Assembly (NCBI GenBank): GCA_002403335.1
Contig: DHHO01000002.1
Coordinates: 71,540 to 125,469 of the forward strand
Length of the DNA stretch: 53,930 nucleotides
Reading direction: 5' to 3'
DNA from: Caldiserica bacterium UBA4770
GTDB lineage: Bacteria > Caldisericota > Caldisericia > Caldisericales > Caldisericaceae
The notes below the pieces were generated by a model. The model did no database searches and was not told where the DNA came from. It saw only the letters and a program-made list of their open reading frames with translations. Made by a program: the position numbers and the translations under genes. Each line of letters begins with the position of its first letter. The stretch's first letter is position 1. Of this stretch, positions 32,375-49,762 are shown piece after piece.

Positions 32375-33527
32375 ATTTACCTCCTTTAAATACAATCTTA
32401 CCATCCACGATAACCTGCTCGCACCTTGCCTGTGTGGAGAATGGATGCCCAGAGTAGATGGATAGGTCTGCAATCTTCCCCTTTTCAATGCTTCCGTAGT
32501 CTTTATCTATATCGAGTATCCTTGCAGCATTTATAGTGATAAGTTCAAGGGCTTTTTCCTCTCCCATTCCTCCATAGTAGGCAACCAAGCCTGTTTGGAT
32601 GGGAAGGTACTGTATTGGTATGACAGGGTGGTCTGTCATTAGAGCTACGAGTACACCTGCTTCAACAAGTTTTGCAGGATTTTCAAAAGAGGAGGACTTT
32701 GTTTCAACCTTCTGTGAAACATCTAAGAGTGGCCCTGCTATAACGGGTACCTTCTCTCTGGCAAGAAAATCTCTCACCCTTACAGCATCCGTTCCATGTT
32801 CTATTGTGACATCAAGTCCAAATTCGTGTTTGGCTATGCGGATGGCTGTAACAATATCATCTGCTCTGTGCGAATGAATCCTTAAGGGAATCCTGTGTTC
32901 AAATGCTGGAATGAATGCCTCCATGTTCAGGTCTGTTACTACCTTATCCTTCTTTTTCTTTTTGTTCTCATAGTATTCCTTTGCCTTTGAAAGGGTTTCT
33001 CTGAAAACCTTTGCAGTGCCCATCCTTGTTGTAGGCAGCTGTGACTTTTCTGAATAAACTCTTTTCGGGTTTTCTCCAAATGCACACTTTAATCCTGAAG
33101 GATTTTTAATGACCATCTCATCAACGATGCTTCCATAGGTTTTCATTACGACACTCTGCCCTCCTACAACGTTTCCTGAGCCAGGCCCTGTAAAAATAAC
33201 AGTGATACCTGCAGATATTGCATCTTTATAAGCAGGGTCCTGGGGATTGATTGCATCAATGGCTCTCATTGCAGGAGTTGCGGGATTTGTCATTTCATTT
33301 CCATCGTATCCTTCAAAGGTAGATTCGAGTGCAAAGAGCCCCAGATGGGAGTGAGCATCAATAAACCCGGGGAAAATGAACTTACCTTCTGCATTAATTT
33401 TCTCAAAGTTTCCCCTGAATGGTTTGTTTGAAATATCCTTGATTCTTCCAGCATCAATCAGGATAAACCCATCGGGGATGATACCCCTTGTAACCGTAAA
33501 AATCTTTCCATGTTCGATTGATAGCAT
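32367..33527 (-). CDS. Metal-dependent amidohydrolase-family protein (paralogue 1)
   Basis: 386 aa; HSH metal-binding motif (IDAHSHLG) typical of the amidohydrolase superfamily. Confidence 0.75.
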   Translation of the reverse strand: MLSIEHGKIFTVTRGIIPDGFILIDAGRIKDISNKPFRGNFEKINAEGKFIFPGFIDAHSHLGLFALESTFEGYDGNEMTNPATPAMRAIDAINPQDPAYKDAISAGITVIFTGPGSGNVVGGQSVVMKTYGSIVDEMVIKNPSGLKCAFGENPKRVYSEKSQLPTTRMGTAKVFRETLSKAKEYYENKKKKKDKVVTDLNMEAFIPAFEHRIPLRIHSHRADDIVTAIRIAKHEFGLDVTIEHGTDAVRVRDFLAREKVPVIAGPLLDVSQKVETKSSSFENPAKLVEAGVLVALMTDHPVIPIQYLPIQTGLVAYYGGMGEEKALELITINAARILDIDKDYGSIEKGKIADLSIYSGHPFSTQARCEQVIVDGKIVFKGGKYV

Positions 33528-33898
33528 GTTACCTCCTTAAAATTATGAGATTTTATCACTAAAAGAAGATTTTCGAAATGGAACGTTTTTAAAGTATTGC
33601 ATTTTCTGGCAGTAACCGTTGGAAAGCAATGTTTATATTGCTTGTTTTCTCTCTTTTTCATGATAAAGGTCTGTTTATTTGCGAAAAATTTATTATTTAT
33701 CTTCTATCATCTATTTTATTGCTTTGAATTTGACTGGTGTTGACCCAACTTGATAAGGATGGCTCGCTTAATTTCTGCTATGTTGAATGCTCTAATAGGT
33801 TTATGCTACGTATGCTTCTAAAATGTTTATTTATTGTGAGAGGATAAGGGAGAAGATAGGGAAAGACAAGATAAAACCAATAACCTGATGAAAAGAGC

Positions 33899-34240
33899 AC
33901 AGGTTACAGAGGATTAAGGAAAAGATCGGGAGAGGATTGGGGATAAGGACAAAGAAAAGTTAGTAGTGCAGGCGGTAATATCGCACCAAAAAATTTTCAT
34001 TTCGTAAGCTCAAAGACCAGAAAAGTTTATCGTGCACCGCCCTGCAAAAATCATTTTAAAAGGAAGAAATAAGCTGTAGTCAAATCCTACATACCGAGGT
34101 CGCATAGGTGAGATGGTTTTGATATAATTTTCCCACCTCAGTTAGTTATTCGCTGTGCGATTGTAAATTCATTGGCAGGCTGACCGCCTGCAACTTCACT
34201 GCTTTGATGGTGGTAATTTAGAGGGCCCGGCTCGCAATTT
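33899..34240. repeat. Left copy of ~340-bp direct repeat bracketing the accessory island
   Basis: Aligns over its whole length (about 93% identity by eye) with 49088..49440; contains internal 9-nt inverted segments GCAGGCGGT (33968) and ACCGCCTGC (34183) about 215 nt apart and a GCAGGC-tgacc-GCCTGC hairpin; no plausible ORF. Confidence 0.7.
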
Positions 34241-34362
34241 ACAAGATCCCTCAAAGAGTAAAAAAGATTTAGATAGTAGAATTTTGATGCTTGACAAATT
34301 TTTCAAAAGGGATAAACTTTTATTGAAAGATAAAAAAGTATTTAATTTTAAAAAGGGGATAA

Positions 34363-35394
34363 ATGAAAAAAGTATTTATCATTATTCTCATTCTAGTTTT
34401 GCTTTTGCTTGCAGCAGGAGCAGGGTATTACTATTTTATTTTTTTCAAAATACCGACTTATACCTTTATGCAGATTAAGAAAGCATATGATACGCATGAT
34501 GTAGAGCTGTTTAAGAAATATGTTGATGTAGATAGTTTTTGCGAACAGGTCGTGGATGATTATGTAACATGGATAAGCCAAAGTGATTTAGCAGATACCG
34601 GAACTGATGTATGGTCAGAGTTAGGTAGTAATATCGCAAAAGGAATGATTGGTCTAATGAAACCTCAAATGGTAACAGAGATGAAAAATGGATTGCTTTA
34701 TTCTGTGGAAAACAATTCAATTAACTCCTCTTCCAGTCAAAATACTTTAAAAGATATAATCAGTGGTGTATCAAATTTACAATCCTTTATTAATAACAAT
34801 TCTGTTTCGACAGTCAAGAATGGTAAAATAACTACGCTCAAGTTTACTATTCACAACGATCAGTATAGTGCCGATTTGGAAATTGACCTCTTACTGAGAG
34901 AGAAAGGTAACCACCTGCAAGTTGTTAAAGTCAGTAATCTCTTAGATTACTTAAAGACTATTGACTATCTTGAGCAAGAACGTATTGATGACCTTAACGC
35001 AAATATTACTAATAACATGCAAGAATTGCTCAGTATTTCCAATGTTAAATATGAGTGGACTGAGCCTGATGAATGGACTACATATGTAGATGTGACTTTC
35101 TTTGCAGATTTTAAAAACAATGGCAATAAAACAATTGACAAATTTACCCTTTCATTAACATTATACGATTCTTCTGGTAACAAAATAACGGATATCGATT
35201 TTGACGAGAGCAAAATAATTAAATCAAGTTCTGTTGTTAAGATTAAGTTAAATAAAGAATTCGATATTTATGACTCGAATGACAAAAAAGCATTAGACTC
35301 GTTACGAAAGGGAGATGGAACATATGATGTTACGTATACTTATATTCACTTTGCGGATGGAAGTGAATTAAAACTTCATAAAAAATTTGAGTAG
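34363..35394 (+). CDS. Membrane-anchored extracytoplasmic protein of unknown function
   Basis: 343 aa; N-terminal TM anchor (IIILILVLLLLAAGAGYYYFIFF) then an Asn/Ser/Thr-rich beta-type domain; first gene inside the island. Confidence 0.55.
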   Translation: MKKVFIIILILVLLLLAAGAGYYYFIFFKIPTYTFMQIKKAYDTHDVELFKKYVDVDSFCEQVVDDYVTWISQSDLADTGTDVWSELGSNIAKGMIGLMKPQMVTEMKNGLLYSVENNSINSSSSQNTLKDIISGVSNLQSFINNNSVSTVKNGKITTLKFTIHNDQYSADLEIDLLLREKGNHLQVVKVSNLLDYLKTIDYLEQERIDDLNANITNNMQELLSISNVKYEWTEPDEWTTYVDVTFFADFKNNGNKTIDKFTLSLTLYDSSGNKITDIDFDESKIIKSSSVVKIKLNKEFDIYDSNDKKALDSLRKGDGTYDVTYTYIHFADGSELKLHKKFE

Positions 35395-35414
35395 TTGCTT
35401 TAGGAGGTGTAACA

Positions 35415-36086
35415 GTGTTAGAAAAAGAGGATTTAGAAGTATTAATTGCGTTGTATTTACTTTGCAAAGGTGATCCATACATGTCGATAAGACATTTTAA
35501 CCTTATTACCAATCTTACTTCTATTGATGACAATGAAGTATTAAAAAGACTGGGAAGATTAAAACAAAAGGGATTGGTTGAGTTTAAAGAAAGTCCATGT
35601 TACAGTGGAACTTTGCCAGATATTGCATTGATTAAACTAACTGGGAATGGATTTGATTATGTTGAAAATCCGTTTAAAACAAAAGGAGGATCCTACGAAC
35701 AAATTAACAGACAGACAATAGAAAATATCAATATCATTAATAGTCCAGGAGGAAATGTCGATGCGAAAAACATTTCACAGCAGACTATAAATCTCTCACC
35801 AGAACAAATAAGTGAAACCAATGAAGGTATAGATTCTATCAAAGACATGATAGAAAAATCCGATGAAATCCCAGATGGTTTGAAAAGAGAGCTATTACAA
35901 ATATTGGATAAAAGTAAAGAAATGTTAATGGAAAAAGATAACAGCGGTTTTATGAATAAATTGAAAGAGTTTTGGTCCAAGATTTTAAAGTTTATAACTG
36001 AATCTGGAAAAATTATAAACTTGTTGCCAATATTAGAGAAGATGATCTCGTTCATCAACAAAGTAATTATTCTGTTAGTCAAATAA
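35415..36086 (+). CDS. Hypothetical protein with N-terminal winged-helix-like and C-terminal coiled-coil/amphipathic regions
   Basis: 223 aa; RBS GGAGGTG; N-terminus LEVLIALYLL...NEVLKRLGRLKQKGLVEF resembles a wHTH; acidic linker; hydrophobic C-terminal helix. Confidence 0.5.
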   Translation: MLEKEDLEVLIALYLLCKGDPYMSIRHFNLITNLTSIDDNEVLKRLGRLKQKGLVEFKESPCYSGTLPDIALIKLTGNGFDYVENPFKTKGGSYEQINRQTIENINIINSPGGNVDAKNISQQTINLSPEQISETNEGIDSIKDMIEKSDEIPDGLKRELLQILDKSKEMLMEKDNSGFMNKLKEFWSKILKFITESGKIINLLPILEKMISFINKVIILLVK

Positions 36087-36167
36087 TTGGGCGGCTCTTT
36101 CTATGAGTAAAATTAAAATAATATAAGTGATGAAGTAGGTTAAAAATAAAATTTCAAAGGAGGAAGT

Positions 36168-37219
36168 TTGATGAAAAGGGCTGTTATAATTCTAACGACT
36201 GTCTTAATGCTCTTCTCTTTGTTTCAGGGAGCATCAAGAGAAAATATGGTGAAAGCAGATAGCCAACCAATCTGGCCAATGCCTGGCTACAATTCACAGC
36301 ACACAGGACAGTGCCCATATGATACATCACAAAATAATGGGAAACTTAAGTGGAAGTTTCAAACAGATGGTGGAATTGCTTCTTCTACTCCTACTATTGG
36401 TTCTGATGGAACGATATATATTATGTCAAGTGATCTCTATGCAATTAATCCTGACGGCACACTGAAATGGAGATATCAAACAGATAACTATTATATTGTT
36501 TCTTCCCCTGTTATTGGTTCTGATGGAACAATCTATGTAGGGGCAGATGACCGTTGTCTCTATGCAATAGGTGGTACTTTTTCTACTGCTATAATAACGG
36601 CATCTGTAGAAGGTATTGGTGGCTCAATTTCCCCTTCTGGCACAATCACTGTTAAGTATGTGAGTCAAAAACCTTCACTATAATACCTGCTTCGGGATAT
36701 AAGATTTCTGATGTTAGAGTCGATGCCAATTCAGTTTTAGAACAGTTGGTTAACAACACTTATACCTACACAAATATTAAAGACAATCATAAAATTACGG
36801 CATTCTTTAAAAAAGGGAAAAAAGAAACAGTCATTATCCTTCAGATAGGTAACAAGAATTTTACTGTAAATGGCAGCCAAAGAACTCTTGACTCTCCTCC
36901 TATCATTAAGAACAACAGAACGCTACTTCCTATAAGGGCTATTATTGAAGCGCTTGGCGGAACAGTTAGCTGGGATGCTAATGAAAAGAAAGTTACAGTA
37001 ATACTTGGAAATGATACTATTGAACTCTGGATAGGGAAGAACACTGCAAAAGTTAATGGTGGTTATACTCCTATTTATTCTACAAATTCTAAGGTAGTCC
37101 CTGAGATTATTAATAGCAGAACTATGCTTCCACTTCGTTTTGTTACCGAAAACCTTGGCTGTGATGTGCAGTGGGATGGGACAACAAAGACAATTACGAT
37201 AACATATCAAGGAGAATAA
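36168..37219 (+). pseudogene. Frameshifted secreted protein (signal peptide, beta-propeller-like repeats, copper-amine-oxidase-N-like stalk domain)
   Basis: ORFs 36168..36683 and 36746..37219 read as one protein if a -1 shift is made in the A5 run at 36667-36671. The first part has a signal peptide and repeated GSDGTIY(I/V) blades; the second has an RTLLPIRAIIEALGG...WD domain. Confidence 0.5.
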
Positions 37220-37220
37220 A

Positions 37221-37397
37221 ATGGCAAGAAAAAAGCAGGAACCTAATGTAAAAGTATTCTTATTTAAGTTAGCGCTTGCAGTTGTTGGAATCATTGTTGT
37301 TTATCTTGCCCTCATGAATTCTGCATGGGTTAGTGAGCATATTATGAAGCCAATATTTGCACCAATTTTTAAGAATTTTGGTATTATACTGAAATAG
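37221..37397 (+). CDS. Small (58-aa) membrane protein candidate
   Basis: MARKKQEPNVKVFLFKLALAVVGIIVVYLALM...; strong RBS AAGGAG 7 nt upstream; one TM helix; below the 60-aa ORF-track cutoff. Confidence 0.3.
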   Translation: MARKKQEPNVKVFLFKLALAVVGIIVVYLALMNSAWVSEHIMKPIFAPIFKNFGIILK

Positions 37398-37412
37398 ACC
37401 TGGAAGTTAGCC

Positions 37413-37436
37413 TTGACAAAGATTTTCATTTGTCAA
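37413..37436. promoter_or_regulatory. Perfect 8-N8-8 palindrome (candidate operator or promoter element) upstream of the hsd operon
   Basis: TTGACAAA-gattttca-TTTGTCAA; the left arm also supplies a consensus -35 hexamer TTGACA. Confidence 0.3.
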
Positions 37437-37582
37437 TAATTAATAGTGAGAAGAGTTTTGTTTTAACTTTTACTTTATAATGGGTACTAATTAATAAATA
37501 TGACTGACGGCTTTGTTGAAAATATTGAGATAATCTGCTTATAAGGAGTGCAGATTACAGAGAATTAAAAAACGAGGTGAAA

Positions 37583-37747
37583 ATGGGTATGCATATTATA
37601 AAAGGGTGGGTATTGACCACAATTGTAGATCTCTCAAATAGTTTATCTTTACGCCAAGACTGTGAGGATATACGAAGCAAGACGTATACAAAAGTGTTAA
37701 GAGAAAAGCAAAAGCCTGCTTCTATTAAAATAAGGGTGGAAGAATGA
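37583..37747 (+). CDS. Small 54-aa basic ORF translationally coupled to hsdM
   Basis: RBS GAGGTG-4 nt-ATG; stop TGA overlaps the hsdM ATG (ATGA); sequence [54 protein letters not shown]. Confidence 0.25.
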
Positions 37748-40200
37748 GCAACGGAAAGATTACATTAAGACAACTTGAAACACACTTATTTAGAGCTGCA
37801 GATATCTTAAGGGGCAAAATGGATGCCTCCGAATATAAAGAATACATATTTGGTATGCTATTCTTAAAGCGTACTTCTGACATATTTGAAGAAAAGAGAG
37901 GAATAATAAGAAACAAACTTAAGTCCGAAGGTCTTTCTGACAAAGAAATTGAAGAACTGCTCGAAGACCCAAATATTTACGATGAGACTTTCTTTGTTCC
38001 CAAAAGAGCCAGATGGGCAAATATCTTAATCTTAAAAGAGGATGTTGGCAACCAACTCAACAAAGCTCTCAGTGCTATAGAAGAGGCAAACCCAGAGCTA
38101 GATGGAGTATTAAAACATATTGATTTCAACGCAATAAAGGGGAAAACGCGCTTAAAAGACCAACAACTCGTAGATTTGATAAACCATTTCAACAAATACA
38201 GGCTAAGGAACGAGGACTTTGAATTTCCCGACCTACTTGGAGCTGCCTACGAATATCTTCTAAAAGAATTTGCAGATTCAGCAGGGAAAAAAGGTGGCGA
38301 GTTCTACACCCCACCGCATGTAAAAACGCTAATGGCAAAACTTGTAAAACCACAGGAAGGGATGACCGTTTATGACCCTACTGTCGGTTCTGGAGGTTTT
38401 TTGATTGAGTCAAGACAATATGTAGAAGAGCAAGGTCAAGACCCACGAAACTTAGCTCTCTACGGACAGGAATCTAACGGTGTAACATGGTCAATATGCA
38501 AAATGAATATGATACTTCACGGTATCCTCGATGCAAGCATTGAGAATGATGACACGCTTACAACGCCCAAATTTGTAGAGAATGGCTATATAAAGACATT
38601 TGATAGAGTTTTGGCCAATCCTCCTTTCTCTCAAGATTATTCAAGGGCAAATATGCAATTTCAAGAAAGATTTAAATACGGTTTTACTCCAGAAAACGGC
38701 AAGAAGGCTGACTTAATATTCCTGCAGCATATGATCGCGAGTTTGAAAAGTAATGGAGTAATGGCAAGCGTTATGCCTCACGGAGTTTTGTTCCGAGGTG
38801 GTCAGGAAAAAATAATAAGGGAAGGAATTGTTAATGACAATATCATTGAGGCGATAATAGGCTTGCCTGAGAAACTTTTTTATAATACAGGCATACCTGC
38901 ATGCATCATTGTAATAAATAAGAACAAACCGTTGCACCTTAAAAACAAAATTTTGTTTATAAATACCGACAGAGAATACGGAGAAGGCAGAAACCAGAAC
39001 TACCTAAGGCCAGAGGATATAGAGAAGATCTTGACAGTTTTTGATAGGAAGTTGGAATTGCCAAAGTATTCAAGGCTTGTGGATATAAAGGAAATCGAGG
39101 ATAACGACTTTAATCTCAATATAAGGCGATATGTGGATAATTCGCCAGAAAGAGAAGCAGAAGATGTTCAGCATCACCTGTTGGGGTCTGTGCCAAAAAG
39201 CGAAGTTAGCACATATCAATCGCAGTTGGAGAAGTTCAATTTCAATTTAAGCGTTCTTTTTGCTGAAAAAGATGATAAAAACCTTGAATTCTTAGAAAGA
39301 ATTGATGATAAGAGCAAGATAAAAGAAGGCATTGAAAATCACGAAGGCGTTAAAGATAGATTTTCCAAGCATTACCAGGCGTTAAACGAGTGGTGGCAAG
39401 AAACTAAAGAAGAAATAGAAAATCTACCTCATAAAAATAATCTCTTGGGACTTAAGAATAAGGCAATGCATGCTTTAAAAGACAAATTGCTTCCTCTTGA
39501 GTGTCTTGATGAATTTAAGATTGCAGGTGTTTTTGTTAATTGGTGGGAAGAGCTAAAATATGACTTTAAGACCATCGTTTCATCTGGATGGAGCAAGGAG
39601 CTTATTCCCGACGAAAGAATAGAACAAAAGTTTTTTGCCGATGATTTAAAGGGTATTGAGGAACTCGACGCAAAAATTGCTGAAATTGTTGGTGAGCTAA
39701 ACGAAACCCTTGAAGAAGTTGAGGACTGGGACGAGGAAGAGCAAGGGCAGAAAACCGCAGGCAAAGTAAGAGACTATCTAAAAGAAACAATTAACGACCT
39801 TCACTCTGCTTCACAGGAGATAGCCCTTAAAGAAATATCAAAATTGGAAGATTTGATTAAAAGGATAGATGCTTATGACAGAGAATTAAAGAAATTAAAC
39901 AAAGATTTGAAATCAAAGAGACAGAATATAGATAGCAAAGTAAGTCAAAAGAGGGAAACCTTAACAGAAGATGAGGCAAAGGAGATACTCATAGAAAAGT
40001 TTTATGAAGTTATAAAAGATTATCTCACAAAATACCTGAATGCTGAAAAGAAAGAACTAATAAGAATTTTTGAGAACCTCTGGGACAAATACAAAACTTC
40101 ACTTGAGCAGTTAAAAACCGAGAGAGACGAAGAAGTTAAGAAGCTGGATGAGTTTTTAAAGAAGTTAGGGTATAATCTGCTGAAGAAAAGTGCAGATTAG
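37744..40200 (+). CDS. hsdM: Type I restriction-modification N6-adenine DNA methyltransferase subunit HsdM with long C-terminal coiled-coil extension
   Basis: HsdM N-terminal domain ([29 protein letters not shown]), SAM-binding [10 protein letters not shown] and catalytic NPPF ([10 protein letters not shown]). At 818 aa it is about 300 aa longer than typical HsdM, with an E/K-rich coiled-coil tail. Confidence 0.9.
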
Positions 40201-40236
40201 AAGGAATATACAAATAAGTCAATTATGGAGGCGAAA

Positions 40237-41364
40237 ATGAAGAAAAAAGACCCATACATACCAAAGAAATTTCCTCCAGAGAAAATAAAATGGAAGGAAA
40301 TAATTCCACTGATTAGCAAGGCTAACTCAGCCATAGCACGTTTTGACGGCATGCTTCAGAGCTTAGTAAATCCTGGTGTCTTACTTTCGCCTCTCACAAC
40401 AAAGGAAGCTGTTTTGTCATCTCGTATTGAGGGAACGCAAGCAACATTAGAAGAAGTAATGCAAGAAGAAGCAGGATTTAACGACAAAAAAATTTCAACT
40501 TCTCTCAAGGAAGATATCAAAGAAATCATTAATTACCGTAATGCATTAACTTTTGCAGAAGAAGAACTAAGCCATAGGCCAATGACTTTAGGCCTAATTA
40601 AAGATATTCACGCAATATTGCTTGATAGCGTAAGAGGAAAAGATAAGTCTCCTGGAGAATTCAGAAATAACCAAAATTGGATTGGAATTTCTGGCATGCC
40701 AATGGAAGAGTCTCGATTTGTGCCTCCAAACCCAATAGTTTTACAGGAACATCTTGAAAGATGGGAAGATTTTCTTCGCTTTGACGGATTCCCTGATACA
40801 TTAGTTCAACTTGCTATTATTCATGCCCAATTTGAGATTTTACATCCGTTTAAAGACGGGAATGGTAGAACGGGACGATTGATTATCCCATTATTCCTAT
40901 TTTGGAAAAAGTTGCTAACTAAACCAAGTTTTTATATGAGTGAGTATCTTGAGAGAAATAGGCAGCAATATGACGATAAATTGCTTTTCATAACGGAAAA
41001 AGGTGATTGGCAAGGATGGATAGAATTCTTTCTAAATGCAATTATTGAACAGTCTGAAATAAACACCGGTAAAACAAAAAAGATGCTTGAACTTTACGAA
41101 GGGAGCAAAAGAAAATTTGCAGTTGCAACTCAATCACAATATGCTATTGCGGCATTGGATGCTTTCTTTAAGCAGCCGATTATAAACACTTCATTGTTCT
41201 TAAAGATTGCAGCTATTCCTAATAGAGTAACAGGCAACAAAATCTTGAAGAAGCTGTTGGACGATAAATTAATTAAGTTGTATAAGCCATCAGAAGGAAG
41301 AAAACCAGCCATATATATTTTCTGCGACTTGTTGAATATTGTCGAAGACAAAAGAGTATGTTGA
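40237..41364 (+). CDS. fic: Fic-family protein (class II, auto-inhibited AMPylase type) embedded in the hsd operon
   Basis: Canonical Fic motif HPFKDGNGRTGRL; N-terminal inhibitory helix motif SSRIEGT ((S/T)xxxE(G/N)); likely start at the second ATG after the GGAGG RBS. Confidence 0.85.
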   Translation: MKKKDPYIPKKFPPEKIKWKEIIPLISKANSAIARFDGMLQSLVNPGVLLSPLTTKEAVLSSRIEGTQATLEEVMQEEAGFNDKKISTSLKEDIKEIINYRNALTFAEEELSHRPMTLGLIKDIHAILLDSVRGKDKSPGEFRNNQNWIGISGMPMEESRFVPPNPIVLQEHLERWEDFLRFDGFPDTLVQLAIIHAQFEILHPFKDGNGRTGRLIIPLFLFWKKLLTKPSFYMSEYLERNRQQYDDKLLFITEKGDWQGWIEFFLNAIIEQSEINTGKTKKMLELYEGSKRKFAVATQSQYAIAALDAFFKQPIINTSLFLKIAAIPNRVTGNKILKKLLDDKLIKLYKPSEGRKPAIYIFCDLLNIVEDKRVC

Positions 41365-41398
41365 AGTTGTGCAAACTAAAGTATTCACAAAGGTATTT

Positions 41399-41429
41399 GT
41401 GTAAACTCAAAACATGTTTTAGTTTACAC
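41399..41429. promoter_or_regulatory. 31-bp near-perfect palindrome/hairpin between fic and hsdS
   Basis: GTGTAAACT-c-AAAA-CATG-TTTT-AGTTTACAC (13-bp stem, one bulge, CATG loop), followed by a U-rich tract AACTTTGGTTGTGTTAATTTT. Confidence 0.4.
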
Positions 41430-41523
41430 AACTTTGGTTGTGTTAATTTTAGCGCACACAAGAATTGCTAAAAGCAGAGAATGATGGCTATGAAGAAAAT
41501 AGAGTTGCAACAAAGGAGCATAA

Positions 41524-41572
41524 GGGGAAGCAAAGGAGTCAAAGGGGTCCTAATGGGGTCATTAAGGGGTCA
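41524..41572. repeat. Five helically phased (10-11 bp) GGGG(T/A)(C/A) direct repeats upstream of hsdS
   Basis: GGGGAA 41524, GGAGTC 41535, GGGGTC 41544, GGGGTC 41555, GGGGTC 41566; iteron-like spacing. Confidence 0.4.
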
Positions 41573-41659
41573 AAGGATGAACCAAGCATACAATAAAGGC
41601 TTAATAAATGTGCAAAAAATATACCATAAAGACCTAAAATAAACTAATAGGGACAAAAG

Positions 41660-42892
41660 ATGGAGAATAAAGAAGAATTTAAAATAAAGAACGTGGAGAC
41701 GCTCCCCGACGGCTGGAAAAGGGTGAAGCTGGGGGAAGTATTAGAAGAAAGAGATGAAAGAGTTGGGAATGCAGAGTTAGAACCTGTTGCAATAGGTGTT
41801 CAAGGGGTTAGAAAAAGGAATGAGATCTATTATAAAGATCTATCTGAGAATTATTCAAATAATAAGGTGTTTAAATACGGCTTTGTTGCATTTGGTCTAG
41901 GAACAAATGAAATGGCAATTGGTGTTAATGTTTTAAATGAAGATTTTTGCGTTAGCCCTGCTTACAAAGTTTTTGAAATCAAGAACGGAGATGCTATATT
42001 TTTTCAATATTTTGTAAACTTTATTAAAATTCTTTTTGGCAATAAGTTTTTAACAGTTTCTGCAAGACAGGGTAAAAGTATAGACTTTAAGTGGTTCCTT
42101 CAAGAGAATGTTATCCTTCCTCCACTTCCTGAGCAGAAGAAAATTACGGAAATTCTGGAGACTGTTGATAATGTAATAGAAAAAACTGATGCGATTATTG
42201 GAAAATACAAACGGATTAAGCAGGGCTTGATGCAGGATTTACTTACCAAGGGCATAGACGAAAAGGGACAAATCCGAAGCGAGCAAACTCACAAATTCAA
42301 AGACTCCCCCCTTGGCAGGATTCCCGAAGAGTGGGAAGTTGTGAGGCTGGGGGAAGTGGGAGACATATTTGACAGCAAAAGGATACCGTTAGATGGAGAA
42401 TATAGATCAAATATAAAGGGAGAATTTCCTTATTGTGGCGCTACTGGAATTATTGATTACATAAACGACTATATATTTGATGGAGAGTTTGTTTTGATTG
42501 CAGAAGATGGCGGCAAATTTAATCGTTTTGAAGATACGGCTTATTTAATGATGGGAAAGTTTTGGGCTAATAATCATGTTCATATTGTATTTGGAAAAGC
42601 GGATTTTTTGAATAATGCTTTTTTACAATACTTTATAAATTACGAAGACGTAAGTTCTTACATTTCTGGAAGCACGAGAGAAAAACTAAACCAGCGACTT
42701 TTAAAAAATATTATTCTTCCTCTTCCTCCACTTCCTGAGCAGCAACGCATTGCCGAAATCCTTTCGCAGATTGACGAAACAATTGAAAAAGAGATACAAT
42801 ATAAAGAGAAACTTGAGCGCCTCAAAAATGGCCTTATGGAAGATTTATTCACCGGCAAGGTAAGAGTAAACAATTTAGTAAAGGAGGAGTGA
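41660..42892 (+). CDS. hsdS: Type I RM specificity subunit HsdS (two target-recognition domains)
   Basis: Two TRDs separated and followed by the conserved HsdS helices LPPLPEQKKITEIL and LPLPPLPEQQRIAEIL. Confidence 0.9.
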   Translation: MENKEEFKIKNVETLPDGWKRVKLGEVLEERDERVGNAELEPVAIGVQGVRKRNEIYYKDLSENYSNNKVFKYGFVAFGLGTNEMAIGVNVLNEDFCVSPAYKVFEIKNGDAIFFQYFVNFIKILFGNKFLTVSARQGKSIDFKWFLQENVILPPLPEQKKITEILETVDNVIEKTDAIIGKYKRIKQGLMQDLLTKGIDEKGQIRSEQTHKFKDSPLGRIPEEWEVVRLGEVGDIFDSKRIPLDGEYRSNIKGEFPYCGATGIIDYINDYIFDGEFVLIAEDGGKFNRFEDTAYLMMGKFWANNHVHIVFGKADFLNNAFLQYFINYEDVSSYISGSTREKLNQRLLKNIILPLPPLPEQQRIAEILSQIDETIEKEIQYKEKLERLKNGLMEDLFTGKVRVNNLVKEE

Positions 42893-42895
42893 ACA

Positions 42896-44677
42896 ATGAA
42901 GGATGATGACTCAATTAGACTCGGCAAAGAAAACATCTTAAGTCTAGTAAGAAGATCTTATAATGGAGAGGTAGTGCTTCCTGATTTTCAGAGAAATTTT
43001 ATTTGGGATAGACAGGGGATAGAGGAATTTATTAAGTCTCTTTTAGAGAATGTTTTTATTGGTACATTTTTGATTCTTGAAACAGTTCCTGGCATGGAAC
43101 CTTTTAATTGCATTCTTGTTCAGGGAGCTAAAAAAGTAAATCCAAATATTGAAGCAAAACCAAAAATCATTATTCTTGACGGTCAGCAAAGACTTACATC
43201 TCTTTTTTATGCTATATACAGCCCTGATATTCCTCTTAAAAACACAGAGAGACCTTATGCTTTTTTCATTGACTTACAGAAACTTGCAGAAGATGATATA
43301 GATGAGGCAGTTTTCAGCCATCCAAAAGATCATATGTTTTATAAAAATCTTTTAGATGGAAGAACTTCTTTTGATACCGAAAAACTAAAAGAGTCAAAAG
43401 TAATCACTTTAGCATTGTTTCAAGATATAAGCACTTTTAACAAGCTTTGGTATAAGGAATTTAACAATTTGTTTGACAATGAGACAGCTGAAAAAGTGAA
43501 AGCCTACTTAGATAACATCTTTAGTTACGATGTAATAACACTATCATTATCGACATCTTTTAATGAAGAACCAGACAAAATAGTTGTTCTATTTGAAAGG
43601 TTAAACAGAACTGGCGTAAGGCTTTCTACATACGACCTTCTTGTTGCACGCATGTATAAGTTTATGAAACTTAGGGAAGAATGGGAAAGATTATTTAATG
43701 ATAGCAATAATTATCAGAATATTAGAAAACTTGCTTCTTATGAAATTGAAAACACCGATGTGCCTTTTTCATTTATTCGAGCATTAGTTCTTTCAAAGGA
43801 AAAAAGCATAAAAGATAGAGACCTTATAAAAATTGATTCTAAAATATTGAATAAAGAAGAGTGGAAAAGGGTTGTAGAAGTTGCTGAAAAAAAGGTCTTG
43901 AGCAGGCTATTTTACCAAGGCAATTACGGAATAGGTGGAGATATTGACAAGTGGCTTCCTTATTCAACAATTGTTATTCCTTTTCTTGCTTTATATTTAA
44001 AACATGACCATCCAGATGTAAAAAAGTTAGATATGTGGTATTGGAGTGTAGTTTTTTCGGAAAGTTATTCTGGATCTACATACTCAGAAATCATGAAAGA
44101 TTTTAGAGAAGTCTCAAGATGGTTTGAAGACGACTTATTAATACCTGAAGTTGTAAGAGAATTAAGGGATCAAATACTCAAAGGAGCATATTCTTTAAAA
44201 GACGTAAAGAGGGTTGGAAGCTCTTTGTTTAAAGGTGTTTTCAATTTAATCTTTAGGAATGATCCAGTGGACTTTTTCGAACCTGAAAACATTGCCTTTA
44301 ATGAGTTGAATGACCATCATATTTTCCCTAAAAATTTTCTTAAAGTGGTCAATGTTGATTCAGATATTGTTTTGAATAGGACTTTGATATTTGATAGGAC
44401 TAATAAAATTATTTCTAACAAGAGCCCAGAGGATTATATTAAAGAAATGATCGAAACTCAAAAGCAAAAGAATGTTTCTCTTGAGGAAGCAGAACGTAGA
44501 GTTAAAGAAATTTTTGAAAAACATTTTATAAATTGTGAGATGTACGAGATATTAAAGAATACTTCAAAAGACTTGCCAAAAGAGAAAATTAAAGAAAACT
44601 TCGAACGATTTATTGATTTAAGAGAGAAATTGATTTTGGCAAAGATTAAGGAATTAATTGGATTGAGGGAATATTAG
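42896..44677 (+). CDS. DUF262/DUF1524 two-domain nuclease (GmrSD/SspE-like type-IV-restriction family) between hsdS and hsdR
   Basis: N-terminal DUF262 (ParB/Srx-like) motif DGQQRLTSL; C-terminal DUF1524 His-Me-finger-like motif NDHHIFPKNF; RBS GGAGGAG. Confidence 0.8.
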   Translation: MKDDDSIRLGKENILSLVRRSYNGEVVLPDFQRNFIWDRQGIEEFIKSLLENVFIGTFLILETVPGMEPFNCILVQGAKKVNPNIEAKPKIIILDGQQRLTSLFYAIYSPDIPLKNTERPYAFFIDLQKLAEDDIDEAVFSHPKDHMFYKNLLDGRTSFDTEKLKESKVITLALFQDISTFNKLWYKEFNNLFDNETAEKVKAYLDNIFSYDVITLSLSTSFNEEPDKIVVLFERLNRTGVRLSTYDLLVARMYKFMKLREEWERLFNDSNNYQNIRKLASYEIENTDVPFSFIRALVLSKEKSIKDRDLIKIDSKILNKEEWKRVVEVAEKKVLSRLFYQGNYGIGGDIDKWLPYSTIVIPFLALYLKHDHPDVKKLDMWYWSVVFSESYSGSTYSEIMKDFREVSRWFEDDLLIPEVVRELRDQILKGAYSLKDVKRVGSSLFKGVFNLIFRNDPVDFFEPENIAFNELNDHHIFPKNFLKVVNVDSDIVLNRTLIFDRTNKIISNKSPEDYIKEMIETQKQKNVSLEEAERRVKEIFEKHFINCEMYEILKNTSKDLPKEKIKENFERFIDLREKLILAKIKELIGLREY

Positions 44678-44680
44678 GCA

Positions 44681-47600
44681 ATGATCCTTGACGAAGAGCA
44701 TTATGTAGAAAACTCTTTCCTTGAGCAACTGCAAAAGCTCGGTTGGAAAATTTATAGGCAGAATAAAGATGATTCCGAGGACGCAAAGGAGATTATTCAA
44801 TTCAATAATTTGGGTGTAGCCTCTTATGGAGAAAGCATTAAGTTCAGGGAAAGTTTTAGAGAGATAATCCTTGAGCAAGAATTAAGAAATTCAATTAAAA
44901 GAATAAACTCCTGGATAGAAGATGCCCAGGTAAGCGAAGTAGTAAGGCGAATAACAATGCCGCAAGCCAATTCACTGCTTGAAGCAAATAGAGAAATTCA
45001 TGACCTTTTCCTTGAAAACACTTCCATATCAGAGAATAGAAAAACAGGTGAAAAAAGCCCAACAGTTAGATTTATAGATTTTAAAAATCCAGAAAACAAT
45101 TCTTTTATCGCAATATCTCAGTTTAAAGTAAATATCCCAGGCACCGAGAAACATATCATTCCTGACATAGTTCTTTTTGTTAATGGCTTACCTTTGGTAG
45201 TGGTTGAATGTAAATCACCAGCAACAGCAGATCCAATAAGTGAAGCCATAACACAACTTATGCGGTATTCAAACAGACGTGGCGAGAAAGAAGGTAACGA
45301 GAAATTATTCTGGTACAATCTGTTTATAGTAGCAACTTCCAAACAGGTTGCAAAGATAGGTACAATCACATCGCAATACGAGGACTTCGTGGAGTGGAAG
45401 GACCCGTATCCTTACACTCTTTCAGACATAAGCGAAGAAGGTGTAATTACAAGCCAGCAACTTTTTATACAGGGAATGCTCTCAATTGAAAATCTCTCGG
45501 AAATACTCCACTCATTCACCATCTTTAAGGAAGATTCGAAAGGTGGAGTGGTAAAAATAGTGCCAAGATATCAACAATTCAGAGCAGTGAAAAAAATAGT
45601 AAAAAAGATAAAAGAAGGTAAAACACCAGAAGAGAGAGGCGGGATTATCTGGCACACACAGGGTTCAGGCAAATCAATGACGATGATGTATGCAGTAAGA
45701 GCAATATATCACGACCAAGAGCTAAGTAATTTCAAAGTAGTGTTTGTAACCGATAGAAAAGATCTCGAACGTCAGCTGAGAGACACATCAAAAAGTGTAG
45801 GCTACACTGTTAAACTCGCAAGGAGTATAAATGAGCTTAAAGAACTCTTGAAAACTGATACCCCTGATCTGGTCATGGGAATGATTAGTAAGTTTCAGGA
45901 AAGAGAACTTGAGCAGGAATTCCCGCTATTAAATACATCTCCGAATATCCTTGTTATGATAGATGAAGCACACAGAACACAATATAAACTCCTCGGGGCA
46001 AATTTGAAAAAAGCTCTTCCAAATTCAATTAAGTTAGCCTTCACAGGTACGCCAATTGAAAAAACAGAAATGACCTTTGGTGACTACATTGACAGATACG
46101 GTATAAAGCAATCTGTTGAAGACGGGGTAACCGTTGAGATCGTTTATGAGGGAAGGACGCATTCTGCGGAACTTACAAATGAAGAGGAAGCTAATGCAAA
46201 ATTTGAGGAAGTTTTCCAAAATGTTGATGCAGATGAAAAGAATAAAATAATGGGAAGATACACATGGAGAGCGTATCTTGAAGATGAAAATGTGATAAAA
46301 GACAAATCGAAGGACATGATAGAGCATTACATAACGCATGTCTTCCCAAATAAATTTAAGGCTCAGGTTGTGACTGCATCAAGAGTTGCAGTCGTAAGAT
46401 ACAAAAAGGCTCTTGAGGAATCACTCAAAGAGCATATTGAGAAGCTCAAGAGGGAAAACCCAGATAACGTAGATTTGGAAACGCTTGAGAGGTTGAAAGT
46501 TGCGGCAGTTTTTTCAGGAGCACAGAATGACCCACCTGAATACAAAGAATTTAGCGATGAAGTAATACAGGAAAAAGTTATAAAAAGCTTCAAGATGCCC
46601 TTCAATAAAATTGATGAAAGTGGAATAGCAGGAGAAGTGGGAATCATTATAGTGAATGAAATGCTTATTACAGGTTTCGATGCACCGCTTGAACAAGTGA
46701 TGTACTTGGACAATGTCATAAAAGAGCACAACCTTCTACAGGCAATCGCAAGAGTTAACCGAGTATATAAAGATAAACATTGTGGCTTTGTGGTTGATTA
46801 TGTAGGTGTTTTGAACCATTTAAAAGAAGCTCTCTCTATCTATGCGGATGAAGATATTGAAGAGATAAGCAAAGTTGTTTTTAACAAAGCACAAGCAGTG
46901 GACAAGCTTAGATATTATCATAACGAACTTTTAACATTTTTTGCAAAGCATTATATAAGAAACTTTAGAGAAGACTTCGAGGATTGTATTGAACTTCTCG
47001 AAGATGAAGAAATTAGAGACGAATTTATAGCCATTGTAAAAAATTTTAGTAATGCAATGGATAAAATTCTTCCAGATCCAGAGGCTCTGAAATACATAAG
47101 AGACTTGAAGATAGTCAATTTCATTAAAGAATCTGCGAAAAACAGATTTAGGGATGACAAGCTCAGTATAAAAGACGCAAGTGGCAAAGTAAGAGATATT
47201 GTAGAGGAATATTTGGTATCCAAAGGAGTTGACCCCAAGATTCCTCCGCTTCCACTGTTTTCAGATGATTTCATTTCAAAAGTAAAGGAAAAGCCGTCCA
47301 GAGACAAGACGGTATATCTAAAATATGCAATAACAGAATATATTGCGAAGCATTCTGAAGAAGACCCAGAATTTTACGAGCGATTTTCAGATAAACTGAA
47401 AAAGGTGCTTGACGAATATAGAGAAAATTGGGATTTGCTTGCGTATGAACTTGAGAATTTAAGAACTCAACTTAAAGAAGGCAGAGGAAGCGAACGGGAC
47501 TTTGGCTTTGACAGAAAAACTGAAATGCCATTCTTAGGCTTAATGAAACAGCTAGTATTTGGGAAAACTCCATTAGAGGAATTGAAAGAAGATGATATAA

Positions 47601-47836
47601 ACTTACTTGTCGAAGTAACAAAAGACACAGTTGCAATTATAAAAAGAGAGATAAGATATGTTGACTTCTGGGATAATTACCACAAGCAAAAGAGGTTAAA
47701 ATCTTACATAATTACCAACATCTTGCTTCCAAAAAAGAAAGAGAATCCTTTGCTCTACGATCTTAGAAACCAAATAGCACAGAGAATAATAGAACTTGCA
47801 TACCACATCTATGGAGAAAAGCATAATGGGCATTGA
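44681..47836 (+). CDS. hsdR: Type I restriction enzyme R subunit HsdR
   Basis: 1051 aa; N-terminal PD-(D/E)xK-like nuclease region (DIVLFVNGLPLVVVECK), SF2 helicase motifs (HTQGSGKS, VMIDEAHRTQ), C-terminal helical domain. Confidence 0.9.
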   Translation: MILDEEHYVENSFLEQLQKLGWKIYRQNKDDSEDAKEIIQFNNLGVASYGESIKFRESFREIILEQELRNSIKRINSWIEDAQVSEVVRRITMPQANSLLEANREIHDLFLENTSISENRKTGEKSPTVRFIDFKNPENNSFIAISQFKVNIPGTEKHIIPDIVLFVNGLPLVVVECKSPATADPISEAITQLMRYSNRRGEKEGNEKLFWYNLFIVATSKQVAKIGTITSQYEDFVEWKDPYPYTLSDISEEGVITSQQLFIQGMLSIENLSEILHSFTIFKEDSKGGVVKIVPRYQQFRAVKKIVKKIKEGKTPEERGGIIWHTQGSGKSMTMMYAVRAIYHDQELSNFKVVFVTDRKDLERQLRDTSKSVGYTVKLARSINELKELLKTDTPDLVMGMISKFQERELEQEFPLLNTSPNILVMIDEAHRTQYKLLGANLKKALPNSIKLAFTGTPIEKTEMTFGDYIDRYGIKQSVEDGVTVEIVYEGRTHSAELTNEEEANAKFEEVFQNVDADEKNKIMGRYTWRAYLEDENVIKDKSKDMIEHYITHVFPNKFKAQVVTASRVAVVRYKKALEESLKEHIEKLKRENPDNVDLETLERLKVAAVFSGAQNDPPEYKEFSDEVIQEKVIKSFKMPFNKIDESGIAGEVGIIIVNEMLITGFDAPLEQVMYLDNVIKEHNLLQAIARVNRVYKDKHCGFVVDYVGVLNHLKEALSIYADEDIEEISKVVFNKAQAVDKLRYYHNELLTFFAKHYIRNFREDFEDCIELLEDEEIRDEFIAIVKNFSNAMDKILPDPEALKYIRDLKIVNFIKESAKNRFRDDKLSIKDASGKVRDIVEEYLVSKGVDPKIPPLPLFSDDFISKVKEKPSRDKTVYLKYAITEYIAKHSEEDPEFYERFSDKLKKVLDEYRENWDLLAYELENLRTQLKEGRGSERDFGFDRKTEMPFLGLMKQLVFGKTPLEELKEDDINLLVEVTKDTVAIIKREIRYVDFWDNYHKQKRLKSYIITNILLPKKKENPLLYDLRNQIAQRIIELAYHIYGEKHNGH

Positions 47837-48494
47837 AATAAAAGAAATAAAAAGAGCGAAAAGAAAAACAATAGCCCTTCAAATAACTGATGAAGGAAAT
47901 TTGATTGTAAAGGCACCCTTCGAAGTAAGTGACAAAACCATAAAGAATGTTGTTATTCGTCATCTAAATTGGATAGAGAAAAAGAAGAAAGAAGTTCTTT
48001 CAAGAGACCCTAAATTTGCAAAAAAGGAGTTTGTGAACGGAGAGGGGTTCCTTTACCTTGGAAAGCATTACCAATTAATAATTGTTAAAGAGCAAGAAAA
48101 ACCTTTAATTTTTAGGAATGCGTTTTTCCTCTCGCAAAACCATCTTGAGAATGCAAAGGAAGAGTTCATAAGTTGGTACAAAGAGCACGCTTATGAAAAG
48201 ATTTCGGAGAGAGTTGGATGGTATGGCAAAAACAGCGGCTTTATATATGGCAAGGTTAAAATCACCAATGCAAATAAACGATGGGGCTCTTGCTCTTCAA
48301 ATGGAAACTTGAATTTTTCTTGGCGGTTAATTATGGCTCCTTTGCCTGTGATAGATTATGTTGTTGTACATGAACTCGTTCATCTCGAAGAAAAGAATCA
48401 CACAAAAATCTTCTGGAGTAAAGTGAAAACAATAATTCCAGATTATAAGAAACATGTAGATTGGCTTAAAACAAATGGATATCTCTTGAAGTAA
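47811..48494 (+). CDS. DUF45/YgjP-like (M48/WLM-type) HExxH zinc metallohydrolase
   Basis: HExxH motif VVHELVHLEE near the C-terminus; start overlaps the hsdR stop. This family commonly sits just downstream of hsdR. Confidence 0.75.
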   Translation: MEKSIMGIEIKEIKRAKRKTIALQITDEGNLIVKAPFEVSDKTIKNVVIRHLNWIEKKKKEVLSRDPKFAKKEFVNGEGFLYLGKHYQLIIVKEQEKPLIFRNAFFLSQNHLENAKEEFISWYKEHAYEKISERVGWYGKNSGFIYGKVKITNANKRWGSCSSNGNLNFSWRLIMAPLPVIDYVVVHELVHLEEKNHTKIFWSKVKTIIPDYKKHVDWLKTNGYLLK

Positions 48495-48810
48495 TAATGC
48501 GAGTTTAATAAGTTTGCTGGTTCTAGTGGACAGCTTTCCCTGTGTAACCTTGTTTTTATTGTCATAATACAGCAGATAAACAGTCGAATTTTACGAAGCT
48601 TTCCCACAAATTGCTTTACAACCTCGTTTATATGTTAATTGTTATATGAGACTCTGAACCTTGCTTTTAAAAGAAGATTTACGATGTAAAGAGACAAATA
48701 AGTTAAAGACTGAACAACCCTCTCGCCTACCATGTCAAAGGAAGTTACTACAAGCCGTATGCAAAAGGAGCGCATATTGCTTGAATAATTATATTAACCT
48801 GCTTACGAAG

Positions 48811-49055
48811 ATTGCAGGTTACAGAAGATTAAAGATGATATGTAGGTTAAGTAGTGCAAATAGACTTTTCACTAACGACGTTCAAAGACCATTTAAGAGG
48901 GCATTGCACACCGGCATATCAAAGACAAAACAAAGACCACTGTAAAGATAATTTACTTACAGTTATGCAGGTGTTTAGCAATGCAACGGACTTTTCATTC
49001 GCAAGCTCATTTCAAAAACCGTTTAAGACGCATTGCACACCAGCATATCTGTGAT
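48811..49055. repeat. Degenerate partial repeat copies and a tandem ~65-bp duplication next to the right-hand repeat
   Basis: 48811-48870 is a shortened copy of the first 80 bp of the 340-bp repeat (GATTGCAGGTTACARARGATTAARGA...GTTAGTAGTGCA). Units 48862-48925 and 48988-49055 share ...GACTTTTCA...TTTAAGAGGGCATTGCACACCGGCATATC / ...TTTAAGACGCATTGCACACCAGCATATC. Confidence 0.45.
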
Positions 49056-49087
49056 AATTAACAAAGAAAGTTATAACCCGCCGAAAC

Positions 49088-49440
49088 AGATTGCAGGTTA
49101 CAAAGGATTAAGGAGAAGATCAAGAGAGGATTGGGGATAAGGACAAAGAAAAGTTAGTAGTACAGGCGGTAGTATCGCACCAAAAAATTTTCATTTCGTA
49201 AGCTCAAAGACCAGAAAAGTTTTTCGTGCACCGCCTTGCAAAAATCATTTTAAAAGGAAGAAATAAGTTGTAGTCAAATCCTACATACCGAGGTCGCATA
49301 GGTGAGACGGTTTTGATATAATTTTACCCACCCTCAGTTAGTTATTCGCCGTGCGATTGTAAATTCATTGGTAGGCTGACCGCCTGCTTCTTTATTCATA
49401 GAGAGCCTGCCCTGAACTTGTTTCAGGGGCCCGGCTCATA
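49088..49440. repeat. Right copy of ~340-bp direct repeat bracketing the accessory island
   Basis: Collinear with 33899..34240. Relative to the left copy it carries an extra hairpin CCCTGAA-cttgt-TTCAGGG (49410-49428) inserted between the shared ...CCGCCTGC and GGCCCGGCTC segments. Confidence 0.7.
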
Positions 49441-49469
49441 ATAAAAATGTTCCCACCCTGAAAACGAAA

Positions 49470-49512
49470 AAAGCCTGTCCTGAACCTGTTTCAGGGTCAG
49501 GATAATTTTTTG
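49470..49512. terminator. Bidirectional intrinsic terminator downstream of tRNA-Met
   Basis: Hairpin CCTG-t-CCTGAA-cctgt-TTCAGG-gt-CAGG flanked by AAAAAAG upstream and ATAATTTTTT downstream; on the minus strand it is followed by UUUUUUCGUUUU. Confidence 0.45.
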
Positions 49513-49686
49513 ATGGCGGAGACGGATCCCGGATTACGGCGCTAACTCCACCACCTGTATATAAATATGCAATGGGGGAGAAAAGTTTTTTAAAGAACTA
49601 TCTTAGTGAAATAAAAACTTAAGAATTGGTTTTAATTTTTTTATGATGGCTCAGGATAGGTTTTAGATAGTAATTAGTTATCTTTA

Positions 49687-49762
49687 TGGTGGCGGCGGGG
49701 GGATTCGAACCCTCGACACTCCGGGTATGAGCCGGATGCTCTAACCACTGGGCTACGCCGCC
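49687..49762 (-). tRNA. tRNA-Met (anticodon CAU; elongator type, or possibly Ile2/k2CAU)
   Basis: Manual fold: acceptor GGCGGCG/CGCCGCC, anticodon arm TCCGG-CTCATAC-CCGGA, T-loop TTCGAAT, discriminator A then CCA; lacks initiator features (G1-C72, no GGG/CCC in the anticodon stem). Confidence 0.8.

Follow-up and report, generated by a model that had tools for sequence, protein, structure and literature searches.

The stretch of DNA analysed here, the window, comprises 53,930 nucleotides of Caldiserica bacterium UBA4770 (GenBank assembly GCA_002403335.1, contig DHHO01000002.1, positions 71,540 to 125,469 of the forward strand), and our subject is its segment at 33.9–49.5 kb, in which a complete type I restriction-modification (RM) system and further accessory genes stand between two direct copies of a non-coding repeat, beside a tRNA-Met gene. 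We put at about one in two the probability that this segment is a defence island in a Caldisericota chromosome, exchanged horizontally by homologous recombination between conserved non-coding blocks. To judge from its composition, the repeat is a mosaic of small hairpin elements and not an integrase attachment (att) site. The duplication most likely originated in homologous recombination between copies of the block, an att duplication of the integrase type being unlikely.

The duplicated block and its order in relatives

The repeat pair was compared by MAFFT, repeat finding and blastn/nhmmer. Its core, unit U, occupies 33891–34196 (left copy) and 49085–49392 (right copy), both on the + strand and ~94% identical, being made up of 244 nt at 94% and 61 nt at 93% on either side of a 2-nt indel; blastn gives 92.8% across 320 nt, starting at 33880/49073. 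Fainter similarity extends to ~34253 on the left and ~49456 on the right, and identical runs reach ~49 nt within an overall divergence of 6%. A first-pass annotation of this DNA had proposed two non-coding repeats in the same orientation at ~93% identity. Their coordinates and identity were essentially right and their non-coding nature holds: a coding-potential check found no open reading frame (ORF) conserved between the copies, and Rfam 15 had no match to repeats or spacers at gathering score, E-value scans of both spacers staying at chance level and only tRNAs matching. No match was returned when the repeat was searched by BLAST against plasmid and phage collections, and a scan of GTDB genomes for the loop pattern of hairpin P (described below) returned 51 single chance matches, none of them repeat-like. 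Within the 53.9-kb window the only further matches are two degenerate partial copies in the right spacer, at 48794–48917 and 48961–49038. The concern that the repeat might be a ubiquitous intergenic element is not borne out, no copies or sub-elements being present in ~54 kb of backbone on the same contig. The pair was also considered as the template and variable repeats of a diversity-generating retroelement and rejected, the mismatches not being adenine-specific and no reverse transcriptase being present; likenesses to a T-box, CsrA/TRAP-type sites, a sigma-H promoter, a hammerhead or k-turn in H, and lambda nut-like sites were superficial when judged by eye and had no model match.

Unit U consists of a hairpin H (~40 nt), a purine tract of 11-nt period, a hairpin P (~95 nt) and a hairpin T. 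The homology between left and right copies has one border inside H, in its 3' arm, and the other at the 3' end of T, and the foreign-looking non-coding block, both copies included, falls within the segment. The purine tract (33921–33956, + strand; right equivalent 49115–49150), read directly from the sequence, is built of GGAGARGAT-like units with a period of ~11 nt; a second purine stretch lies at 33838–33875, and a purine tract also follows H in relatives (L074, L085, L091, L108, L130 and others). P (33957–34052, + strand; right copy 49151–49246) is a three-tier hairpin with the loop motif GCTCAAAG, and its three stems are kept in relatives by other sequences, for example GGCGGT/ACCGCC against GGGTGAT/ATCACCC, or AAATTTTC/GAAAAGTTT against TATTTTTT/AAAAAATA. 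P is separated from T by a short segment in which a TGATATAAT box occurs (34114–34122 and 49309–49317). The outer stem of T, GCCGTGC/GCACGGC, has a variant changed on both sides (CGGCGTGC/GCACGCCG) with G-U pairs on the + strand. In the left copy T (34136–34199, + strand) is the hairpin GGCAGGCTGACCGCCTGC enclosed in its outer stem and runs on as a second type, T2, which has no T-run and has a second hairpin; in the right copy (49332–49392, + strand) it is of type T1, a hairpin followed by TTCTTTATT. T1 looks like an intrinsic terminator because its hairpin is followed by a T-run. Module D (34200–34362, + strand) follows the left T2 as the upstream region of a 343-aa gene, and is 83–94% identical to the upstream region of surface-protein genes in related loci L198 and L200.

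Both spacers were compared with fetched related loci by nhmmer and blastn. In the right spacer, module A (48548–49067, + strand) comprises a first hairpin (hp1, ~48751–48783), an inserted copy of H, and two P-like hairpins (48839–48936 and 48964–49067); it has 78–93% identity to more than 20 related loci, where it stands downstream of cargo. Across 18 loci most of its columns are more than 90% conserved and it folds into three long hairpins, with compensatory replacement in the first hairpin only, the other two varying too little for covariation to be judged. The order of elements in these more than 20 loci, which we call canonical, is a variable cargo X, then A, U, T1, an ORF of 162–164 aa (ORF163), two small ORFs, T2-D, and S, the last consisting of genes for surface proteins with beta-propeller/CARDB/PKD and Cu_amine_oxidN1 domains; a 424-kb chromosomal contig and an NCBI contig from a metagenome-assembled genome (MAG) are among the loci that show it. 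The cargo upstream of A differs by locus, including an AAA_23 ATPase, a UvrD helicase, an MmeI-like RM system, MNT/HEPN, NERD, HD-CE and a serine recombinase, so that the repeat does mark other variable loci, as the first-pass annotation had wondered. ORF163 belongs to no significant family and has weak similarity to GemA; its 132 detectable homologues all come from metagenomes or MAGs, and the few that bear an organism name are from Caldisericum/Caldiserica.

The window departs from this order: it has U-T-D-S-X-A-U-T1, the canonical sequence of elements being X-A-U-T1-ORF163-T2-D-S. Its right copy agrees with the relatives in coming after A and in being of type T1. In its left copy U runs straight into a 3' part of type T2 and then D, whereas every relative inspected has ORF163, with a copy of T on either side, between U...T1 and T2-D. 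We infer that the window would represent the canonical order made circular and cut open inside U, ORF163 having dropped out as if T1 had recombined with T2. The S block is altered too: the proteins of 171 and 157 aa encoded in the window correspond to the N- and C-terminal parts of a 717-aa surface protein of L198 (63–75% aa identity), the middle repeats of that protein being lost between the two ORFs (36168–37219). This S gene is probably a pseudogene.

The mini-palindromes H and M

H is a motif of 41 nt, composed of an 8-bp hairpin (TAACCTG-loop-CAGGTTA) followed by CAGAGGATTAAGGA, and repeat finding places five copies of it in the island, at 33880, 37531, 40173, 48795 and 49074. All are on the + strand. 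The first forms the 5' edge of the left repeat (33881–33921), with the left/right homology beginning in its 3' arm, and the last the 5' edge of the right repeat (49074–49114), where 5' arm and loop have diverged. Another stands in the 5' untranslated region (UTR) of the RM operon (37531–37571), between a promoter-like site and a 54-aa ORF before hsdM, and the copy in module A (48795–48835) is absent at the orthologous sites of nine related loci. The fifth is a degenerate copy at the 3' end of hsdM (40173–40213), which supplies the last eight codons and the stop (..NLLKKSAD*). Here the insertion appears to have replaced the native C-terminus of HsdM (40173–40200), because the PADLOC MTase_I model stops at residue 810 of 818.

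The motif is widespread in related DNA. When JGI metagenome contigs were scanned for its 3' arm and tail, at least 120 loci were found, and about three-quarters of the matches listed also hold the complementary 5' arm, an element not required by the pattern; a looser search yielded 93 distinct sequences in the window and the 85 H-bearing loci among the matches listed. No H was found in 378 kb of unrelated control loci or in 80 kb of more distant Caldisericota. Stem variants keep their pairing (ACCTG/CAGGT, ATCTG/CAGAT, ATCCAC/GTGGAT, ATCCGA/TCGGAT, AGCCAC/GTGGCT), and RNAalifold, applied to 56 representative sequences, gave six pairs, three of them with double changes (UA 28/CG 24; UA 38/CG 8/AU 2; GC 41/AU 8). 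A palindrome acting at the level of DNA would fit equally well, because C-A mismatches are as frequent as G-U. H was also considered as coding sequence, a peptide 'NLLxKxxGYxxLK' being readable in some contexts, and the variable length of the loop ruled out a conserved frame. Copies lie between housekeeping genes (pdxT-yebC, ruvB/yebC, the pnp region, valS, ileS, clpB) and in phage-like regions, often placed precisely in the gap from a stop codon to the following Shine-Dalgarno sequence.

Module A allows filled and empty sites to be compared directly, 15 orthologous sites having H and nine being without it. The filled sites read TTATAT[TAACCTG...AGAT]TAAAGATGATATG and the empty ones TTATATTAAGATGATATG or TTATATTGAGATG; the junctions fit a TAA or TA target duplication, off by one base. 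The same comparison in the neighbourhood of the Band_7 gene gave nothing, the spacers there being too diverged for alignment. No cognate transposase (RAYT, IS630 or IS200/605) was identified, though no systematic search for one was made. The 93 distinct sequences, the compensatory stem changes and the filled and empty sites together indicate that H is, or was, mobile. In two loci a further insertion lies inside the H of module A: it is of ~34 nt (TTTACTCTTTTCTAATCGCACTCCTTTTCAGTGATT), placed at GGTT|AC (L152 11345–11410, and L200), with a similar break in L118 and L126, and may represent a third small element that targets H.

The second family, M, is a mini-palindrome, CCTGAAC..GTTTCAGG, present twice in the right spacer (49411–49429 and 49479–49497, without assigned strand), the second copy being a bidirectional terminator with A/T runs. 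There are 47 copies of M across the 837 kb of related contigs, against none in the 378 kb of controls. The related loci with M include L081, L095, L116, L122, L153, L164 and L168; within the conserved block it is inserted, in either orientation, into spacers and the loops of hairpins. The block, in short, is a nest for the mobile mini-palindromes H and M. No description of either was found in the literature searched, and as far as such searches show they are previously undescribed families of mobile mini-palindromes in Caldisericota, a phylum that has received little study.

Their natural comparison class is that of repetitive extragenic palindromes and bacterial interspersed mosaic elements (REP/BIME) and of miniature inverted-repeat transposable elements such as Correia, RUP and BOX. 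H and M resemble these in being short, palindromic, non-coding, multi-copy and intergenic or intercistronic, in forming mosaic clusters, in being polymorphic for presence and absence, and in that one can insert inside another. Unlike them, H has a conserved single-stranded tail of 14 nt (ACARAGGATTAAAGA), and the gene that follows often has its Shine-Dalgarno sequence in this tail or after it.

Proposed recombination between block copies and the alternatives

Recombination of the RecA type between block copies would be the most economical mechanism for the arrangement in the window. A circular copy could have entered a resident U by a single crossover of the Campbell type, or tandem copies could have undergone unequal exchange, and in neither case would an integrase or att site be involved. 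ORF163 would have been lost through recombination between its flanking T hairpins. The conserved block would then serve as a portable stretch of homology through which one set of defence genes could replace another, and the present copies could themselves recombine to delete the 15.2-kb segment, so that turnover of the island by this route is plausible. Campbell-type integration and deletion between direct repeats by homologous recombination are established mechanisms, and the window shares with them a segment between long imperfect direct repeats whose order is circularly permuted relative to that elsewhere; it differs in that no circular form or deletion allele was observed here.

The distribution of the mini-palindromes suggests import, H and M being confined to the island on this contig and dispersed in relatives. 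The island has four to five copies of H and two of M, and the same-contig backbone of ~54 kb (the window outside 33.8–49.5 kb with 9.9 kb to its left, L202, and ~6 kb to its right, L007) has no H, no M and no other module. At 0.11 per kb, the density of additional copies on H-bearing contigs, ~6 copies of H would be expected in the backbone, and the probability of none is ~0.002.

Several points weigh against this interpretation. The loci that supplied the H density were chosen for containing H, and H copies cluster. Neither an empty site nor a deletion allele nor a circular junction turned up among the loci of relatives. The gene on the left flank, an amidohydrolase, has different neighbours in all relatives examined, and for that reason insertion and in-situ rearrangement are inseparable. 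Since the copies are 6% diverged, the event was not recent, or the sources differ, or the copies were kept for function. The argument from circular permutation assumes a donor in canonical order, and several deletions from tandem elements give the same end state.

The left flank was followed through five look-ups of amidohydrolase homologues (75–84% identity), in which no empty site was found and synteny was not conserved, the neighbours being folate genes or feoAB. In L190, L192, L194 and L196 a Band_7 gene adjoins the amidohydrolase pair; here they are ~28 kb apart (3026–3781 and 31259–33527), and therefore the genome has been rearranged around the left flank of the island. On the right, the tRNA-Met gene (anticodon CAT, tRNA call at 49687–49762, − strand) has its 3' end 295 nt from the end of the repeat core, close to the ~250 bp first proposed. 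Contig L105, from a relative, is 91.5% identical over tRNA-Met and the 42 nt upstream of it, and diverges exactly at the 3' end of the tRNA, beyond which it has a large serine recombinase gene and then a prophage of cI/cro type. The site therefore appears, from this comparison, to be variable in the lineage, and the earlier description of accessory DNA beside tRNA-Met agrees both with this serine-integrase prophage standing in its place in L105 and with the distinct composition of the segment. In L105 (1–11979) the recombinase gene directly follows tRNA-Met on the minus strand (~130–1510), and the prophage-like element carries cI/cro, RecT-like and replication genes. Prophage-like contigs also share a stretch of ~0.8 kb between a gene of 139–165 aa and a sigma-like gene (L092 3773–4430; L105 10954–11780; L133 680–1650; L159 12367–13242), with overlapping ORFs on both strands and similar 'translations', which looks like a conserved non-coding or structured region and not like genes.

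The alternative that survives best, although we consider it unlikely, is that the segment is what decay has left of two integrative elements or prophages in tandem, accreted at tRNA-Met and each of the order X-A-U-T1-ORF163-T2-D-S. Later deletions would have removed their integrases and outer parts, ORF163 and any phage genes, leaving U-D-S-X-A-U. The S gene of the window is visibly decayed, the prophage of L105 uses tRNA-Met, and lysis-like genes, phage-like early genes or a serine recombinase lie 10 kb or less from the block in L111, L123, L159 and L198. At least four independent deletions would be needed, however, two of them ending in the same unit; the window contains no phage gene or integrase fragment (in the island there is no Pfam or PHROG match to phage structural, lysis or replication genes or their fragments); and the S-to-X junction at 37.2–37.7 kb has a normal promoter-like site and no recognisable scar.

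It is decidedly unlikely that the copies are simply functional cis-acting RNA units under selection and unrelated to mobility, the left one serving as the leader of a surface-protein operon and the right one as a structured 3' UTR or terminator of the RM operon or as a small RNA gene. P, T and the outer stem of T keep their pairing on the + strand through compensatory and G-U changes, T1 is of the canonical terminator type, the conservation of module A across its 18 loci is high, and the modules are co-oriented with the flanking genes. Against this, z-scores for the folding of the whole unit are unremarkable and uninformative (+0.5 left, −2.6 right), and the C-A mismatches of H suit a DNA palindrome equally well. 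Such a role would leave the permuted gene order unexplained; it is compatible with recombination between block copies and does not exclude it.

To a bolder proposal we would give only a small chance, namely that the conserved A-U-T1 block of 1.3–1.8 kb is a functional device, working as a large structured RNA or, at the level of DNA, as a recombination platform by which defence cargo is captured and exchanged in Caldisericota. The block combines an enclosed terminator and a periodic purine tract with three to four ~100-nt hairpins, more than 90% of its columns are conserved across at least 18 loci, and the Caldisericota-specific ORF163 adjoins it. Integron cassette arrays offer a likeness, in that variable genes are co-oriented, each block is followed by a conserved imperfect hairpin module, and hairpin modules also occur in tandem without intervening genes; they differ from the present case, where there is no IntI and no R''/R' core (GTTRRRY), and where the cargo is multi-gene with its own promoter-like site. 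A reading as an integron was rejected, IntI being absent, the tail GTTACAG not fitting GTTRRRY and the borders being imprecise. Partial copies of A separate successive cargo blocks in L131, L152 and L159 and break at differing positions, which argues against a site-specific cassette system.

Very unlikely, in our estimation, is an island made by an integrase, or a cis-mobilisable element, with the repeats as attL and attR at tRNA-Met and mobilisation in trans. The segment is tRNA-adjacent, A+T-richer and has direct repeats at both ends, the relative L105 has a serine-integrase prophage at the same tRNA, and in L198 a serine recombinase stands beside the homologous block. Nevertheless, tRNA sequence is absent from the repeat, and a blastn-short search of the window with the tRNA-Met region gave only chance matches of 12 nt or less, with no tRNA fragment repeated; the repeat lies 295 nt from the tRNA, is 305 nt or more in length and is 6% diverged; its modules occur in the same order and non-duplicated in relatives; and the copies of A between cargo blocks break at differing positions. 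Nor are serine integrases known to leave long direct repeats. The proposal that the repeats bound the island thus stands in so far as they enclose an accessory segment and the block edges variable cargo in relatives, and fails as regards att-type ends, the repeats being mosaics without tRNA sequence and 6% diverged. A mis-join induced by the repeats in a metagenome contig can be dismissed, for although many other short-read contigs break inside the repeats, the two-copy structure itself explains the positions of those breaks, and both junctions are found in two independent assemblies, ENA contig k141_723039 and JGI contig Draft_10002906, the latter from another sample and covering, by coordinate calculation, the amidohydrolase to ~49660 of the window, both copies included.

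Island genes, flanks and significance

Gene content was called by Pfam and PADLOC, and the description of accessory genes all on the plus strand was confirmed, every ORF between the repeat copies lying on the + strand. The S block (34363–37398) encodes proteins of 343, 223, 171 and 157 aa and a small ORF (58 aa as called on the contig); the first two are without clear families, the 171-aa protein is a beta-propeller fragment and the 157-aa protein has the Cu_amine_oxidN1 domain. The defence cargo, block X (37413–48494), opens with the promoter-like site (37413–37440) that precedes the RM operon, followed by the 54-aa ORF, hsdM (37744–40200; N6_Mtase/HsdM_N, PADLOC MTase_I), the SoFic gene (40225–41364), hsdS (41660–42892; Methylase_S, Specificity_I), a GmrSD_N/HEC-05-like gene (42896–44677), hsdR (44681–47836; HSDR_N/SWI2_SNF2/T1R_D3, REase_I) and ygjP (47796–48494), so that the type I RM system is complete in HsdM, HsdS and HsdR. 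The spacer between fic and hsdS holds purine-rich units with a period of 9–12 nt (41495–41590: AAAGGAGC, AAGGGGAAGC, AAAGGAGTC, AAAGGGGTC, AATGGGGTC, AAGGGGTC, AAAGGATG), which are unlike the purine tract of the repeat. The gene-free stretches at the edges, proposed as ~0.8 and ~1.2 kb, measure 835 nt (33528–34362) and 1192 nt (48495–49686), and among the ORFs between 33.5 and 49.8 kb Pfam and PADLOC found no integrase or transposase, as had been claimed. The impression that the island is A+T-richer also proved correct: its G+C content is 35.3% against 39.2% on the left and 37.7% on the right (Mann-Whitney test on 1-kb windows, p = 1e-5), and its G+C at third codon positions (GC3) is lower as well (p = 0.014).

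The backbone belongs to Caldisericota, because the best named relatives of the amidohydrolase are Caldisericaceae/Caldisericota (65% identity to Caldisericum exile) and the housekeeping proteins on related contigs fall in clusters containing proteins of Caldiserica/Caldisericum MAGs; the label 'divIC-yabR Firmicute backbone' is mistaken. A look-up of the 894-aa protein on the right flank gave no record. Between the right repeat and tRNA-Met (49517–49596) lies a conserved segment of ~70 nt, CGGATTAYGGCGCTAACTCCACCAC..TATATAAATATGCA..GGGGGA, that recurs in two unrelated contexts (L129 2247–2314 and L136 28–110).

The closest general concept is that of defence islands in integration hotspots that are tRNA-adjacent or otherwise fixed. 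The present segment is like them in having variable defence genes (type I RM, SoFic, GmrSD-like) at a fixed position, cargo that differs in relatives and deviant composition; it is unlike them in that its borders are a non-coding block of 1.3–1.8 kb and not core genes or att sites, and in that the island has no integrase. Taken alone, a type I RM/SoFic/GmrSD island beside a tRNA gene is ordinary. H lies directly before ribosome-binding sites and is even able to provide a protein with its C-terminus; were the block a functional device, H would be a portable intercistronic or 5'-UTR module and the whole a cassette-exchange system unrelated to integrons. The repeats break short-read assemblies at this locus and so will bias MAG-based surveys of defence systems in Caldisericota. 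What sets the island apart is that the repeats flanking it are copies of a non-coding block conserved across the Caldisericum lineage at the edge where defence genes are swapped, and it offers a test case for the part played by non-coding homology, as against integrases, in the turnover of defence cargo.

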